Of a DNA stretch of 64,000 bases, positions 32,878 through 53,883 are shown piece by piece. How positions within the stretch are numbered: position 1 is the first letter of the stretch; every line of letters starts with the position of its first letter. The stretch spans positions 10,706-74,705 of the forward strand of contig JBGSPL010000001.1 in the NCBI GenBank assembly GCA_041738615.1. Reading direction: 5' to 3'. The notes under the pieces were generated by a model. It was not told the origin of the DNA, did not search any database, and saw nothing but the letters and a program-made list of their open reading frames with translations. The translations under genes and the position numbers were made by a program. The stretch is from Patescibacteria group bacterium (GTDB lineage: Bacteria; Patescibacteriota; CPR2; UBA1875; CAIMLA01).

Positions 32878-33294
32878 ATGGAAACAAATCTAGAGGAAGC
32901 AAAGAAGTCTAAGATTCGCGAACAGGTCGGGATTTTGTTGGTTTGTTTGGTACTTGCTGGAAGTGGGGTGCTCCTGCTCAAGGAAAAACCAGAATCTGGG
33001 ACTATGAGCTTTTCTTCTGGCAATGGCAAGGTTTTGGAAGCCAATTCGAACGCATCTACGAAATCATCAGCCAATTCCTCAGCAGCTGAGCCAGCAATTT
33101 CGACGAAGATAAATATAAACACGGCTTCGCTCGAAGATTTAGATAAACTCCCCGGGGTTGGTCCAGCAACGGCACAGAAAATAATCGATTATCGAAACCA
33201 GAACGGACTGTTTCCGAGCATTGAGGCTATTGATGGCGTCTCTGGTATTGGCCCCTCGAAGTACTCACAAATGAAAGACATGATAAGTATTTAG
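32878..33294 (+). CDS. comEA: ComEA-family helix-hairpin-helix DNA-binding protein
   Basis: TM anchor plus HhH motif INTASLEDLDKLPGVGPATAQKIIDYR. Confidence 0.85.
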   Translation: METNLEEAKKSKIREQVGILLVCLVLAGSGVLLLKEKPESGTMSFSSGNGKVLEANSNASTKSSANSSAAEPAISTKININTASLEDLDKLPGVGPATAQKIIDYRNQNGLFPSIEAIDGVSGIGPSKYSQMKDMISI

Positions 33295-33305
33295 CTAGAT
33301 ATTAC

Positions 33306-33334
33306 TTGAAATAATTCCATTTTTGGCTTAGAAT
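33306..33334 (+). promoter_or_regulatory. sigma70-like promoter (TTGAAA-17-TAGAAT) for the PurH-domain cassette
   Basis: TTGAAA at 33306-33311 and TAGAAT at 33329-33334. Confidence 0.55.
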
Positions 33335-33368
33335 GCCCTCACGCTGTCAGCTGGAGGGAGGGTTGTTA

Positions 33369-33971
33369 ATGGAAAAGCGACATGCGTTGCTCTCTGTCTT
33401 TGACAAGACGGGGATTGTTGAGTTCGCAACTGGACTCGTGAGTTTCGGTTTCGTGTTGATTGCCTCAGGGGGTACTGCGGCGGTTTTGCGCGAGGCTGGG
33501 CTCGAAGTGATTGATACGGCCGACCTTGTTGGTGGCCCGATTCTCGGGCATCGTGTCGTCACGCTGTCTCGCGAGATTCACGCCGGTATCCTGGCCAAGG
33601 ACAACGAGGAGGACCGAGCGGAGCTTGCACGGCTCGGCATCAACTTCATCGATCTCGTGGGGGTAGACCTTTACCCGCTCGAAGGTATGGTCGAGAAGGA
33701 AGGGGTCACAGAGGCGGAGGTCATCGAGATGACTGATGTCGGTGGTCCGACGATGCTACATGCGGCCGCAAAGGGTCGCCGCATTGTGGTCACACCTCAG
33801 GACTACGATGAGGTCCTCGACTGGCTCGGTCAGGACGAGCCTGACCCTGTCGAGTTCCGGCGGAATCTGGCCTTCGTGGCAGAACTCACGGCACTGGAGC
33901 ACCTCGAAGCCTCGGCTGCGTACATCGCCAAGGTTGCGGGGATCGAATTCGTCGACGACGAGGAGGACTAG
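33369..33971 (+). CDS. stand-alone PurH-type IMP cyclohydrolase (MGS-like) domain protein
   Basis: Clear similarity to the N-terminal domain of bifunctional PurH (ALLSVFDKTGIVEFA, ASGGTA, GGPILGHRVVTL..HAGIL, VDLYPLE, DVGGPTMLHAAAKG). GGAGGGAGGG SD 5 nt before the ATG at 33369. No AICAR-transformylase domain follows. Confidence 0.75.
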   Translation: MEKRHALLSVFDKTGIVEFATGLVSFGFVLIASGGTAAVLREAGLEVIDTADLVGGPILGHRVVTLSREIHAGILAKDNEEDRAELARLGINFIDLVGVDLYPLEGMVEKEGVTEAEVIEMTDVGGPTMLHAAAKGRRIVVTPQDYDEVLDWLGQDEPDPVEFRRNLAFVAELTALEHLEASAAYIAKVAGIEFVDDEED

Positions 33972-34000
33972 TCCGCGTCAGAACGTGCAACTGCACGACC

Positions 34001-34036
34001 GGGTCCGCTATACCCCTAGCGGACCCTCTTCATTTT
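34001..34036 (+). terminator. hairpin terminator after the PurH-domain gene
   Basis: GGGTCCGCTA-TACCCC-TAGCGGACCC (10-bp stem) followed by TCTTCATTTT. Confidence 0.6.
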
Positions 34037-34043
34037 GATACTG

Positions 34044-34072
34044 TTGAAAAGAGCAGAGAATTATAGTAAAAT
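34044..34072 (+). promoter_or_regulatory. promoter for tRNA-Leu(TAG) (TTGAAA-17-TAAAAT)
   Basis: TTGAAA at 34044-34049 and TAAAAT at 34067-34072, about 20 nt upstream of the tRNA. Confidence 0.5.
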
Positions 34073-34093: not shown

Positions 34094-34178
34094 GCCTCGG
34101 TGGTGAAACTGGTATACACGCTAGTTTTAGGAACTAGTGCCGCAAGGCGTGGAGGTTCGATTCCTCTCCGAGGCACCA
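34094..34178 (+). tRNA. tRNA-Leu(TAG)
   Basis: Acceptor GCCTCGG/CCGAGGC, anticodon stem CTAGT/ACTAG with loop TTTAGGA (TAG), long variable arm, encoded CCA. Confidence 0.85.
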
Positions 34179-34312
34179 CTTTTACGACAAATATCTTCGA
34201 TTTTTGTGGGGACGAGGGAAACAGAGAGAAGATAATGGGGCCGTTTGGGCCTTTTTTCATTACTTCCTAGATATGGTATTATTTATAGCAGAATAACCAA
34301 AGGAGAACTGAA

Positions 34313-34624
34313 GTGGGTGAATTTGACCAACCAGATGGAAGTGATTTTGTAGCAGCGCCAGTGGAGTTAGCAGAAGTTAGTGACTCATCAGAGACAGTTA
34401 GACCAGAGCCCTTGTTTGGCAAGCAAAACGTTGTTGACTTTGCGCTTGATGGTAATCCAACGGAAGATTTTCAAAAAGTTGGAGCTATAGATACGTATCA
34501 TTTTGATGAAACAACCAGCTCCTGGAAATATAATATCAAGGAGGAGGGCACAGGGACTTTACACTTAGATGTAGATGAATCGCTGATATATATTGAGGAT
34601 CTGGGAATTGAGAGGAGCAAATAA
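34313..34624 (+). CDS. hypothetical acidic protein (103 aa)
   Basis: ORF with an AAGGAG SD and a GTG start. Its stop codon overlaps the trxA start. No family recognised. Confidence 0.45.
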   Translation: MGEFDQPDGSDFVAAPVELAEVSDSSETVRPEPLFGKQNVVDFALDGNPTEDFQKVGAIDTYHFDETTSSWKYNIKEEGTGTLHLDVDESLIYIEDLGIERSK

Positions 34625-48625: not shown

Positions 48626-48659
48626 CCCTTGGCTTGCCTTGCTAAAGCAAGGCATTCAC

Positions 48660-48689
48660 GATACTTTTGTCCATAGTCACAAAAGTATC
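48660..48689. repeat. perfect 11-bp-stem hairpin GATACTTTTGT-(8 nt)-ACAAAAGTATC
   Basis: Perfect inverted repeat. Sister element at 52214..52241. Confidence 0.6.
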
Positions 48690-48878
48690 CAAAAAGACAT
48701 TATAAATGCGGCGGTCTGAGGACCTTCGCAGCGGACAGTCATGCCTGAGCGGCTTGGGTTTAGTCAAATTGCGATCTCTCACAAATCTATAGGATTGGCC
48801 GTTGTAGTACACGCATTTTATTAATCTCACGTCCTAGGCCCTCCAGACACGTTACAGGGCAAGTTAACGTCAAAATCA

Positions 48879-48960: not shown

Positions 48961-49131
48961 ATGCCGCAAGAAACTGCTGCTCCGGCTTGGATCGGATGGG
49001 TGCTCCTTCTAATCCCCACCGCCATGATCTTCATTGGACCCATGGCGTACAAGAGGCGCGATGACGTAAGAGCTTCGTGGCAAAGGCCGTCAGAGGATGA
49101 GATTAACCGATCGATTGGGTATCGCGGTTAG
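48961..49131 (+). CDS. small hydrophobic protein (56 aa, one TM helix), cassette 2
   Basis: GAGAGGGG SD 7 nt before the ATG at 48961. Sequence WIGWVLLLIPTAMIFIGPMAY followed by a basic tail. Confidence 0.4.
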   Translation: MPQETAAPAWIGWVLLLIPTAMIFIGPMAYKRRDDVRASWQRPSEDEINRSIGYRG

Positions 49132-49196
49132 CCCCGTCTGATAGGTAGTCAAAGGCGAGCGCGCCCCCCGGTGCGCACCTGACGAGAAGAGGGGAC

Positions 49197-49328
49197 ATGA
49201 AGAGGATACTGAGTGATTTGTGGTGGACCTTGGTGGTCTACCTGGTCTGCTCCATTGTCTGGGCCGTTTGTGGCCTGGCTTCGGTCGGGATCGTTCCTGA
49301 CCAGATTGGCGCCGACGAAGGCGCCTAG
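49197..49328 (+). CDS. small hydrophobic peptide (43 aa, one TM helix), cassette 2; not in the ORF track
   Basis: ATG at 49197 after AAGAGGGG. MKRILSDLWWTLVVYLVCSIVWAVCGLASVGIVPDQIGADEGA. Confidence 0.35.
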   Translation: MKRILSDLWWTLVVYLVCSIVWAVCGLASVGIVPDQIGADEGA

Positions 49329-49347
49329 CGCCAGAATGGAGTAGACC

Positions 49348-49593
49348 GTGAGTAAGGTCATAGTCTCCCTGCCGGGAGGTAAGGCGATATTCACAGAGGA
49401 GCTTCCTCGGGAAGCAACGACGGTTTCCGTCGAGTATGCCCAGAGGCTCGTGGATCAGCTCGGGAAGACCGACGGGAGGAACTACCAGCTGTGCACTAAG
49501 CCTCAAGTCGCGAGCGACGAGGACGAGGAGCGCAATCTGCTTCCTGGAGATGTTCTCATCAGCATCGCCGATTTTGGTCCTCGTACAAACTGA
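49348..49593 (+). CDS. hypothetical protein (81 aa, GTG start), cassette 2
   Basis: GGAG SD 6 nt before the GTG. No family recognised. Confidence 0.4.
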   Translation: MSKVIVSLPGGKAIFTEELPREATTVSVEYAQRLVDQLGKTDGRNYQLCTKPQVASDEDEERNLLPGDVLISIADFGPRTN

Positions 49594-49658
49594 GGCCGTC
49601 CACGGCACATCCAAACGCATGTTGGGATGTCGCCGGTGGCGGCCTCTCAACATATATA

Positions 49659-49687
49659 TTGTCAAGAATGCTTATCCATAGTAAGAT
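49659..49687 (+). promoter_or_regulatory. candidate internal promoter (TTGTCA-17-TAAGAT)
   Basis: AT-rich 60-nt spacer inside the GC-rich cassette. Moderate match to consensus. Confidence 0.35.
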
Positions 49688-49753
49688 ATCGCCATCGACG
49701 TTAGTGTCACTTGTGTGCGCCTAGCGGCGTGCACCTACCAAGGGGGGGCGGGG

Positions 49754-50233
49754 ATGATGAAACGCTGGTTACTCGACGGCTTGCAAGTGCTTGTGTTGTC
49801 AGCCGTACTGACAGCGGCTTGTTACGCGCCGGTTTTTGCCGGCATCTGGCTCTACGGGGTCATCGGGGGCTTGAACCTGTTCGTACTGTTCCTGGCTGTG
49901 GCTGTTGTGGCCATTCGCATCGCACTCTCACCACATGGTTTCGTTGAGCGTTCAGCGGACCTGTGGCTTGCAGCTGTGGGCATGTCGCTCGCGGCGCTTG
50001 AGATGTGGAAGCCGCTTCTCACTACAGTCGTCTGCTGCGAGTACTTCATGTTCATGGCAGTGCTCGGCTACGGTGCTCCAGTCTGGTTGCTCGGACTTCC
50101 GGTCGCGATTTGGCCGGTACTGCCACTGCTGGTTTTGGCCAGCACGTTGCTTCTCGGGATGTTCATCATGCTGGAGGCAGAGGGCGACGAATTCTCCGAC
50201 ACCAGCGAGCTGGCGCGGTCGTTCGGCCACTAG
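49754..50233 (+). CDS. hypothetical polytopic membrane protein (about 159 aa, 4-5 TM helices), cassette 2
   Basis: AGGGGGGG SD before the ATGATG at 49754. Strongly hydrophobic with an acidic C-terminus. Confidence 0.5.
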   Translation: MMKRWLLDGLQVLVLSAVLTAACYAPVFAGIWLYGVIGGLNLFVLFLAVAVVAIRIALSPHGFVERSADLWLAAVGMSLAALEMWKPLLTTVVCCEYFMFMAVLGYGAPVWLLGLPVAIWPVLPLLVLASTLLLGMFIMLEAEGDEFSDTSELARSFGH

Positions 50234-50304
50234 GGACACCAGTGTCTCAGGTTCCGGAGGTCCTGCAACGTAGGTTGTGGGGCCTCCGGAAGAGAGAAAA
50301 ATAC

Positions 50305-51651: not shown

Positions 51652-51713
51652 TTATAATAACTAAAACTTATAGATAGCAGGGCACTTTGACCCTGGGAAC
51701 TAGAAGGAGACAC

Positions 51714-52034
51714 ATGGCTGAGAAAAACGAAAAACAGAGGATCCGAATCAAACTAAAGGCGTACGACAACAAGATTATCGACCAGTCGACAACACAGATA
51801 ATCGAGACAGCAGTGCGCAGTGGTGCTAAGGTGGCGGGACCTATCCCACTACCAACAGATAGGACTCCTATCACTGTAAACCGCGCGAGCAACGTCAACA
51901 AGAACGCACGAGAACAGTTTGAGATGCGGGTGCACAAGCGCCTCATAGATATCACTGACTTCACAGCGAAGACAGTGGACAGTCTGATGAGTCTCTCACT
52001 TCCAGCCGGAGTAGACATCGAAATCAAAATGTAA
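51714..52034 (+). CDS. rpsJ: 30S ribosomal protein S10
   Basis: GAAGGAGA SD before the ATG at 51714. S10 signature [11 protein letters not shown]. The ORF-track start at 51687 lacks an SD. Confidence 0.95.
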
Positions 52035-52408: not shown

Positions 52409-52482
52409 ATAGTGTCGTCATAGCCCCGATGGCTATTTCGACGCACGTTGACGTTAATTCACGACACCAGGAGGTGTTTGCG

Positions 52483-52935
52483 GTGCCAAACGCTGGTCCT
52501 CGCACCGAAAAGACGGCCGGCGTGAAGCGGCCGAACTGTTTTTGGGTGGCTGTCTTCGAGGTGCTTACCGGTGGGAAGAAGTACCGCGTTGATTTCGCGG
52601 TGAGTCGTTCACAGAAGGACGCCTATCTGGCGGATGGTCACGATTCCTCTGTCGATCGCAACTACTCTCATCTGATATGCGCAAAGCTCAGGGATGAGCA
52701 CGGAGTTATCGTTGAGATTCTTGCACCGAGCCAGTTTCGCTTGATTGAGTTCCATTCACGCGATGCCGGTTCGATGTCCACCGAGGAGTTGGCCCGAATC
52801 ATGCGACGGACCGAGAAGAACACCGCCGAGACTGCTGCAATCGTGGCTGCTCACAACGATAAGAAGGCGGCCAAAGAGAAGGCTAAACGCCAGAGGATAA
52901 CCCGTACTGGAGATGGGCAAGCCGAGCTCTTCTAG
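52483..52935 (+). CDS. hypothetical protein (150 aa, GTG start), cassette 3 gene A
   Basis: AGGAGG 8 nt before the GTG at 52483, in frame with the ORF-track ORF 52429..52935. Lys/Ala-rich C-terminus. No family recognised. Confidence 0.45.
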   Translation: MPNAGPRTEKTAGVKRPNCFWVAVFEVLTGGKKYRVDFAVSRSQKDAYLADGHDSSVDRNYSHLICAKLRDEHGVIVEILAPSQFRLIEFHSRDAGSMSTEELARIMRRTEKNTAETAAIVAAHNDKKAAKEKAKRQRITRTGDGQAELF

Positions 52936-53010
52936 CCTTTGGCTCGCGCTCACAAGGATTTGCGTTTAGGGATGTGCCCAAACGTGAAACAGCACAGAGA
53001 GGGGAGTCGC

Positions 53011-53334
53011 GTGAACGAGCTGGAGCAGTTCTACGCGCATTTGCGGTTCTTCATCCGTGAAGGGCCGAAGTACGTCGTTCCTGGCAAGGAGAGTTGCCCC
53101 GAGGTTACCCTCGACACTCTCGTAAGGCAGGGCATGGAGCTCGAGCCTGAGCTTTGGGGCAATGAGACACAGACTCGCGAGATCATCTTTGGACTTCGCG
53201 GCATGGACCTCGCAGCCTGGGAGGTTTTTGCTCGCAAGAATCCCGAGGGTTTCAAGCGGCTCAAGTCGGCCTACGACTACGAGGAGGCGTTCCATATCGC
53301 GATGTCTCGCGAAGAGGCCGCCAAGAAACGCTAG
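53011..53334 (+). CDS. hypothetical protein (107 aa, GTG start), cassette 3 gene B
   Basis: GAGGGGAG SD 4 nt before the GTG at 53011, in frame with ORF 52939..53334. No family recognised. Confidence 0.4.
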   Translation: MNELEQFYAHLRFFIREGPKYVVPGKESCPEVTLDTLVRQGMELEPELWGNETQTREIIFGLRGMDLAAWEVFARKNPEGFKRLKSAYDYEEAFHIAMSREEAAKKR

Positions 53335-53344
53335 TGACGTCAAC

Positions 53345-53393
53345 GTCGACGACCGTGGGCGGTGGGGGAAACCCCGCTGCCCACGTCGACCAA
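53345..53393. repeat. 49-bp GC-rich hairpin-forming direct repeat, copy 1
   Basis: GTCGACGACCGTGGGCGGTGGGGGAAACCCCGCTGCCCACGTCGACCAA. GTCGACG/CGTCGAC outer stem, imperfect inner stem around a GAAA loop. Confidence 0.8.
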
Positions 53394-53460
53394 TTTAATA
53401 CTCTATATGGTACGAACAGTGCCACCAACGACGTCAAACCCCAGGAAGGGGTGTGGCTTT

Positions 53461-53883
53461 ATGACTGCAGGAATCGAGGAACTCATCCGAATCATCAACG
53501 ATTCGCGTGAGGGCAAGCATTTCGAGCTGACGTCACTGACTGTGATGTTGCTTACCGAAGGTAAACCGGACGGGGTCTTCTCTAGCTCGGTTCCCTTCCG
53601 CTACATCATCGAGTGCCTTCTCGACGGGTTTGAAGGCGCTTGGGTCAACGTACTCAGCGAGCGTCACCTCGACGAGGGGTACCAGGAGCTGTTGGCCCTG
53701 ACACCGTTTGGTGGTAAGCAGCTGCTCTTTGCCACTCACACTTCAGTGGGCCTTTCTTTGGAAGGGTTCGAGTTCCTGATGTGGGACGACGAGGGACACC
53801 TGCGGACACCCGAACGGGTAAAGGCTCAGTTCGGCAACGATGCCCTGGGTTGGCTTGAAGCCTGGGTTTACGAAGCTTCCTAG
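53461..53883 (+). CDS. hypothetical protein (140 aa), cassette 3 gene C, bracketed by the 49-bp repeats
   Basis: AGGAAGGGG SD about 10 nt before the ATG at 53461. Acidic. No family recognised. Confidence 0.45.
   Translation: MTAGIEELIRIINDSREGKHFELTSLTVMLLTEGKPDGVFSSSVPFRYIIECLLDGFEGAWVNVLSERHLDEGYQELLALTPFGGKQLLFATHTSVGLSLEGFEFLMWDDEGHLRTPERVKAQFGNDALGWLEAWVYEAS

Follow-up and report, generated by a model that had tools for sequence, protein, structure and literature searches.

A GC-rich 740-bp cassette between comEA and tRNA-Leu of a Patescibacteria genome carries an unfused PurH2-type IMP cyclohydrolase gene of a mostly-CPR subfamily

The window analysed in this study is a 64-kb stretch of DNA from a Patescibacteria group bacterium (contig JBGSPL010000001.1, 293 kb long, of assembly GCA_041738615.1, positions 10,706 to 74,705 of the forward strand), and the subject of this report is a gene in it, purH2, for an unfused PurH2-type inosine monophosphate (IMP) cyclohydrolase, that is, the N-terminal MGS-like domain of PurH. 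The coding sequence at 33369..33971 (+), identified by translation of its open reading frame (ORF), encodes 200 amino acids (aa) with an MGS-like fold and belongs to a PurH subfamily referred to below as CPR-type, after the Candidate Phyla Radiation (CPR). The start was placed at 33369 because the −10 box overlaps with an in-frame upstream ATG at 33333 and because the equivalent ATG in a related locus, L001, reads into a stop codon. The gene is preceded by comEA (32878..33294, +; HHH_3 domain in Pfam) and ends 122 bp upstream of tRNA-Leu(tag) (34094..34178, +; ARAGORN, Rfam), and the genes around the cassette that contains it are housekeeping genes.

The only Pfam domain of the product was MGS-like (PF02142, E 3e-14), and the two NCBIfam purH models, TIGR00355 and NF002049, matched it at model positions 1–189 of 511 only, scoring 162 bits (cut-off 528) and 153 bits (cut-off 402), respectively. 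The protein thus falls outside the bifunctional PurH equivalog, being below the curated cut-offs and lacking PF01808, the transformylase domain acting on 5-aminoimidazole-4-carboxamide ribonucleotide (AICAR). This domain was found neither in the gene (Pfam) nor anywhere in the 64-kb window (tblastn), and tblastn with PurB, C, D, E, F-like, K, L, M and N together with the PurH C-domain gave no match in the same 64 kb. A sequence search of the PDB aligned the protein to residues 7–195 of human ATIC (E 1e-37), its best solved relatives being the IMP cyclohydrolase (IMPCH) domains of human, avian, fungal and mycobacterial PurH/ATIC and the protein ForH. The AlphaFold model had a predicted local distance difference test (pLDDT) score of 93.5 with the whole domain confidently modelled, and superimposed on human ATIC with xanthosine monophosphate (1pkx_A) with a template-modelling (TM) score of 0.87 and a root-mean-square deviation of 1.7 Å over 191 columns at 46% identity. 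The profile phrog_30501 also matched (E 1e-33). These results are in agreement with an earlier interpretation made from the DNA letters alone (the sequence-only reading), which had described a stand-alone IMP-cyclohydrolase gene without the transformylase half and without other purine de novo genes in the window.

The same reading had the protein aligning motif for motif with PurH, and for most motifs this is the case. The SGGT phosphate loop and the residues corresponding to Arg64, Thr67, Tyr104, Asp125 and Lys137 (human numbering) are conserved as in the IMPCH domains of human (1pkx), avian (1g8m) and Mycobacterium tuberculosis (3zzm) PurH/ATIC, which share the same fold, and all invariant and nearly invariant family columns are retained. 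The exception is the loop that reads GGRVKTLHP in canonical PurH and GHRVVTLSR(E) in the window protein, so that human Lys66 is replaced by Val64 and His69-Pro70 by Ser-Arg. The residues listed as important for the cyclohydrolase are Lys66, Tyr104, Asp125 and Lys137 (PMC3261824), of which the last three are present as Tyr102, Asp123 and Lys135; key contacts to the ring are made by the backbone (PMC6797443). Valine at the Lys66 position is common to the whole subfamily, including full-length PurH proteins inside pur operons. The position of Ser12 is occupied by Phe/Tyr, as in fungi and M. tuberculosis (PMC9525906).

When one genome per GTDB species was scanned, the subfamily of the window protein, with the signature GHRVVTLSRE, was recovered from 410 species. 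Most of them are CPR (Saccharimonadales, Paceibacterota, Doudna-, Harrison-, Lipton- and Moranbacteria, among others), and some are Nitrospirota and Actinomycetota metagenome-assembled genomes (MAGs). The best 80 of these 410 loci comprised 74 full-length genes (497–602 aa, with MGS and AICAR-transformylase (AICARFT) domains), five short ones and one frameshifted gene, L058, whose 291-aa protein was at first sight a candidate intermediate form and was discarded as such, being a frameshifted full-length gene. Neighbours of the best 80 loci included purB (25 loci), purC (19), purE (12), purM (11), purD (10) and purN (8). From the full-length architecture and these neighbours it follows that the subfamily is a real PurH engaged in purine synthesis; the statement that CPR bacteria lack the purine pathway, mostly true, thus needs qualification for the species with such genes. 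Full-length members, such as L003, L015 and L021, share the signature with the window protein and are 51–61% identical to it over the N-domain; unlike the window gene, they possess a C-terminal AICARFT domain with the KH catalytic pair and commonly lie in pur clusters. They scored 280–368 bits against the NCBIfam purH cut-offs of 402 and 528, as compared with 823 and 909 for Escherichia coli PurH, which is probably why several of them are named "hypothetical protein" in NCBI MAGs.

An initial protein search, in which nearly all matches were of about 200 aa, had suggested an inherently stand-alone family; this was rejected, as that search was biased to short proteins and disagreed with both the genome scan and an exhaustive search of 1.84 billion representatives. 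Among the top 150 matches of the latter, the CPR-type motif occurred in 25 full-length, nine intermediate and 29 short proteins, part of the short ones probably being fragments. In the neighbour-joining (NJ) tree the subfamily separated from canonical PurH with bootstrap 100, and the window protein paired with that of L001 (bootstrap 98) at the subfamily base, the pair retaining two canonical-type residues that are changed in the rest of the subfamily.

Seven true short genes (L001, L002, L004, L050, L075, L079 and L082) stop right after the domain boundary with no C-domain nearby, and short-only clades in the NJ tree had bootstraps of 74–99 and uniform lengths within each clade. To judge from these sequences, the cyclohydrolase-only form is a stable stand-alone gene in several clades. 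Short purH2 genes were found beside purB-purE(-purC) in L002 and L004, purD in L079, purL pieces in L089 and with a purF-like gene nearby in L092, and also in contexts unrelated to pur (L090, L091, L082 and L050). Another organism has a stand-alone gene of the same subfamily that encodes AICARFT only (P0214/L086), which makes a genuinely split PurH plausible in this group.

As side observations on this family, full-length CPR-type purH was much GC-richer than its neighbours in L028 (0.59 vs. 0.39), L044 (0.58 vs. 0.47), L040, L043 and L080, which hints that purH is frequently transferred among CPR, and a 400-aa metagenomic protein (P0363) consists of two tandem near-identical canonical PurH2 domains without an AICARFT domain.

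The window gene is contained in a GC-rich unit of 740 bp (33307..34046, GC 0.577), which a blastn comparison with the related locus L101 showed to be specific to the window genome at this position. A consensus scan gave a sigma-70-type promoter, TTGAAA-17-TAGAAT (33306..33334, +), followed by a Shine-Dalgarno sequence read as GGAGGGAGGG (33353..33362, +), 6 nt 5′ of the ATG and conserved in L001. Downstream of the stop codon a first hairpin, CGTGC-AACT-GCACG (33984..33997, +; predicted fold), precedes an intrinsic terminator (34001..34036, +) with a 10-bp stem GGGTCCGCTA/TAGCGGACCC (34001–34026) and a T-run, and this 3′ region folds with a z-score of −5.5. The right border lies at host sequence, namely the tRNA-Leu promoter TTGAAA-17-TAAAAT (34044..34072, +; consensus scan). 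The promoter, the Shine-Dalgarno sequence, the 10-bp-stem terminator and both neighbours had already been pointed out in the sequence-only reading and all were found. The leader of about 30 nt showed no significant fold (z −0.2) and no Rfam match to a ZTP/pfl or other riboswitch at the gathering threshold or at E values up to 1; control of purH2 by a riboswitch or structured leader was rejected on these two grounds.

The GC content of purH2 is 0.592, and 0.687 at third codon positions (GC3), as compared with 0.463 (sd 0.019) and 0.458 (sd 0.041) for 53 core ORFs of the window, corresponding to z-scores of 6.9 and 5.5. The gene is therefore compositionally foreign, as had been suspected. Neither an integrase ORF nor direct or inverted repeats around the 740 bp were found, and the unit lies 5′ of the tRNA promoter, not at the tRNA 3′ end; on these three grounds a tRNA-associated genomic island or integrative element was rejected.

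The orthologous region was recovered from five relatives, in all of which (5/5) the order recG-comEA-[slot]-tRNA-Leu(tag)-trx-tig-clpP...rpoB is conserved, where the slot is the intergenic position occupied by the cassette in the window. By its RpoB the window falls in a CPR lineage; this protein was 61–64% identical to that of CPR2, Howlettbacteria and Saccharimonadia, the nearest named matches, and 72–99% identical to that of closer relatives. In the nearest of these, L101 (assembly GCA_964501135.1, RpoB 99%, RecG 93% aa identity), the slot contains 190 bp of unrelated DNA; in L097 (RecG 81%) and L094 (RecG 72%) it is empty; and in L102 (assembly GCA_964511435.1, RecG 75%) it holds a mazG-like gene only. 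The more distant L001 (RecG 55–57%) has mazG and an orthologous short PurH2 with 73% aa identity to that of the window. Homology between the window and L101 ends at 33306 and restarts at 34047, which makes the 740 bp novel, and the segment 34047–34178 is 98.5% identical in the two. The tRNA-Leu promoter is conserved in the six related loci, whether the cassette is present or absent.

L001 derives from an independent assembly of another sample (Logan SRR22388010) and has the same gene, slot and signals as the window. Its cassette promoter, TTGAAA-17-TAAAAT, is followed by the conserved leader GCC(C/T)TCACGCTGTC and the same Shine-Dalgarno sequence, and its 3′ end is likewise formed by two hairpins, the first of which reads CTTGC-TAGT-GCAAG through one compensatory base-pair change. 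Its purH2 gene has a GC content of 0.55 against 0.30–0.36 in the flanks, and a GC3 of 0.57 against 0.19–0.31. Comparison of the window and L001 genes gave dN 0.235 and dS 1.28, that is, a dN/dS of approximately 0.18, which together with the retained invariant columns and the confident model of the full domain indicates that the gene is maintained by selection.

Taken as a whole, the window cassette is best explained, with a probability of about 0.7, as an unfused CPR-type PurH2 recently gained by horizontal transfer as a single 740-bp cassette and presumably active as an IMP cyclohydrolase. Horizontal gain, which had also been proposed from the DNA alone, is preferred because the cassette is missing from the same slot in four closer relatives and present in a more distant one, so that vertical descent needs four clean losses, and because vertical descent would not account for synonymous sites that have failed to equilibrate in two hosts whose own genes have done so. 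For the direction and mechanism of the transfer, as for the activity of the enzyme, we infer the following. Given the basal position of the window/L001 pair, the donor would be a GC-richer organism, as yet unsampled, with a basal member of the CPR-type subfamily in its genome. The transfer probably proceeded by DNA uptake and subsequent recombination at the conserved flanks, especially at the tRNA promoter and the tRNA, which would be the most economical mechanism; in the window lineage it would have followed the split from L101, and the L001 lineage would have made a related but separate acquisition or taken part in an exchange. The result would be a self-sufficient unit (promoter, Shine-Dalgarno sequence, ORF and two-hairpin terminator) in a variable comEA/tRNA-Leu slot, whose product would cyclise formyl-AICAR (FAICAR) to IMP on its own. 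Judging from the dN/dS ratio, the three of four catalytic residues that are kept and the model, the window PurH2 most likely still performs this conversion, and a lone cyclisation is assumed because PurH2 domains work in isolation elsewhere: the unfused AF1811 of Archaeoglobus functions in vitro and in complementation of an E. coli purH2 defect (PMC6797443), and isolated human and staphylococcal PurH2 domains are active as well (PMC6797443, PMC3261824).

Several results weigh against this explanation. The residue replaced by valine, Lys66, is one of the four listed for the cyclohydrolase (PMC3261824). No other pur gene and no AICARFT domain was found in the 3.6–23 kb available at the five same-lineage related loci or in the 64 kb of the window, so that these regions reveal no source of the FAICAR substrate; according to a preprint, 93% of Patescibacteriota genomes cannot make nucleotides de novo (bioRxiv 10.64898/2026.06.21.733656). 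Neither an integrase nor terminal repeats were found that would explain the use of one insertion site in two distantly related hosts. The dN/dS ratio is only approximate because dS is near saturation, and the backbone bootstraps of the NJ tree are near 0, too low to name a donor lineage or to tell a single from a multiple origin of the short forms.

The most serious competitor, although an unlikely one, is an orphan or repurposed PurH2 in a genome without de novo purines and AICAR formyltransferase, kept for another job such as cyclising host-derived FAICAR-like compounds, acting on another nucleotide substrate, nucleotide sensing or a ribosome-associated role. It agrees with the lack of pur genes in the window and the five same-lineage loci, with the slots of the closest relatives that lack the gene, with a cassette that moves alone under purifying selection, with the short forms in non-pur contexts (L090, L091, L082 and L050), with the replacement of Lys66 and with the pathway being missing in 93% of Patescibacteriota (bioRxiv 10.64898/2026.06.21.733656). 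PurH is moreover known to moonlight: in Methanosarcina acetivorans PurH-aEF2 is a 50S dimerisation factor (PMC12605026; PDB 9ou7). This is the only precedent for a non-purine role of PurH, and nothing in the data analysed supports a link between it and the window protein. The Val64 signature, however, is shared by full-length members of pur operons and is thus no mark of a new activity, several short forms adjoin purB/E/C, purD, purL or a purF-like gene, the same-subfamily stand-alone AICARFT (P0214/L086) makes a split PurH realistic, and no positive evidence of another substrate or partner was obtained. The wider proposal, that a single-gene IMP-cyclohydrolase cassette circulates among CPR lacking purine synthesis and is selected for a non-pathway role (conversion of host FAICAR/AICAR-type intermediates to IMP, sensing, or the ribosome), deserves slightly less credence still, and the repurposed function put forward in the sequence-only reading is speculation.

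An ordinary split PurH inherited vertically, with the cassette in place before the window and L001 lineages diverged and lost in L101, L097, L102 and L094, would account for the identical position, the conserved architecture of the unit and the compensatory change in the 3′ hairpin, and the PurH2 identity of 73% is comparable to the 71% of thioredoxin. It is nonetheless improbable, since four independent clean losses stand against one or two gains, a GC3 of 0.69 and 0.57 persists while the host genes have equilibrated to about 0.46 and 0.19–0.31, and the slot of the nearest relative contains unrelated DNA. Still harder to defend is a decaying remnant or neutral hitch-hiker, that is, a deletion-truncated and non-functional PurH: truncated or frameshifted purH genes such as L058 do occur and the gene is dispensable in close relatives, but the cut falls exactly at the domain boundary with no trace of a C-domain downstream, the ORF, promoter, Shine-Dalgarno sequence and terminator are intact, the family-invariant residues are all kept, the model is complete and confident, and dN/dS is about 0.18. 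About as poorly placed, if not slightly worse, is a high-GC donor outside CPR, such as an actinobacterium, a candidate raised in the sequence-only reading that would fit the GC-rich gene. The subfamily does occur in high-GC Actinomycetota/Thermoleophilia MAGs (L017, L020, L024, L029, L031 and L035), but these form a separate internal clade deep inside it (bootstrap 94) and share only 57–58% identity with the window protein, which is no more than Saccharimonadales members do (57–61%), and the window/L001 pair is basal in a mostly-CPR subfamily; nothing points specifically to such a donor. An assembly chimera, in which a foreign GC-rich fragment was mis-joined into the contig, would explain the sharp GC boundaries; with the same gene, slot and signals in the independent assembly L001, borders exactly at host promoter elements and collinear host sequence on both sides, it can practically be dismissed. 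A phage origin was rejected as well: IMG/VR yielded no member of the CPR-type subfamily, the phage matches were canonical-type PurH/PurH2 with 39–46% identity, and the neighbours of the cassette are housekeeping genes.

The preferred explanation, a recently acquired unfused cyclohydrolase, involves an enzyme type that is itself known, as unfused PurH2 has already been described in Archaeoglobus (AF1811), in cyanophage P-SSM7 and as ForH. AF1811 of A. fulgidus (Hunter et al. 2019, PMC6797443) is likewise an unfused PurH N-domain of about 200 aa; it is archaeal and thought to pair with the formate-dependent PurP, whereas the window gene is a horizontally acquired accessory cassette, and all archaeal PurH2 keep the Lys66 (PMC3261824) that is valine in the window protein. 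The PurH2 of cyanophage P-SSM7 (NC_015290, PSSM7_184; phrog_30501) is a stand-alone protein of 194 aa encoded by a mobile accessory gene that adjoins mazG, as in L001; in contrast to the window protein, to which it is 45% identical, it is phage-borne and has the canonical GRVKTLHP loop.

The mazG-like pyrophosphatase gene lies directly 5′ of the stand-alone purH2 in both L001 (1698–2663) and the cyanophage (L103, 2082–3079). A functional mazG-purH2 pairing was considered and is weakened by the occurrence of mazG alone in the same slot of L102, so that the adjacency is probably a coincidence.

ForH, part of a C-nucleoside antibiotic gene cluster, has a pyrazole analogue of FAICAR as its substrate; the window locus contains no cluster of this kind. 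The protein, from the formycin producer Streptomyces kaniharaensis (PDB 6nko), is also stand-alone (about 216 aa) and has the same fold as the window protein (TM 0.77–0.81).

What the window cassette adds to these cases is an unfused PurH2 of a Lys66-less, uncurated and mostly-CPR subfamily, caught as a recently acquired single-gene cassette. Bacterial PurH, described as "nearly always fused", has a large uncurated CPR-type subfamily with Lys66 replaced, in which the cyclohydrolase half repeatedly became a stand-alone gene. Calls of pathway completeness in Patescibacteria are affected, since scans based on KEGG Orthology (KO) or equivalogs may miss genes of this subfamily; according to a preprint, the nucleotide synthesis genes of Patescibacteriota are phylogenetically scattered (bioRxiv 10.64898/2026.06.21.733656). 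The locus also offers a clean and datable gene-sized horizontal gain at an intergenic hotspot, in an ultra-small genome devoid of mobile-element machinery. Should the remaining pathway genes really be missing from the genome, the cassette would indicate an unrecognised salvage or non-purine role of PurH2.

Further variation was seen at the same locus. The interior 71 nt of tRNA-Leu(tag) are identical in the window (34094–34178), L101, L097 (1229–1313) and L094 (12656–12740), whereas the 7-bp acceptor stem differs completely and is perfectly compensated, GCCTCGG/CCGAGGC in the window and L101 vs. GGGGATG/CATCCCC in L097 and L094. A tie between the cassette and the type of acceptor stem was discarded, because in L101 the window-type stem occurs although the cassette is missing. 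An ORF of the window between the tRNA and trx, at 34313–34624 (103 aa, no family match; indel 34284–34606), is absent in L101, L097 and L094, and L001 has at its place a 93-aa ORF of marginal similarity (46% over 24 aa); the segment 34284–34606 adds a second small indel to this variable locus. A roughly 100-bp element rich in hairpins lies 3′ of fusA (window 48634–48734) and is 84% identical to L101 5694–5794, and the L101 copy sits exactly in the comEA/tRNA-Leu slot where the window has purH2. This element, for which no Rfam match was obtained, has the look of a small intergenic module that is repeated or mobile.

Two other GC-rich regions were noted in the window. The genes rpsJ and rplC are normally adjacent in the S10 operon; in the window, rpsJ (51668–52027, +) and rplC (54091) are separated by a 1.5-kb island (52429–53883; GC 0.55–0.59, GC3 0.63–0.73) with three ORFs, no Pfam or PHROG match and a compositional signature like that of the PurH2 cassette. 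A second GC-rich stretch (49000–50250, GC 0.54–0.60) lies between fusA and tuf and includes an ORF for a hydrophobic protein of 172 aa (49715–50233, GC3 0.73); there is only weak similarity (44–47% aa) to the ORFs found at this position in L101, and in L102 the region is different once more.

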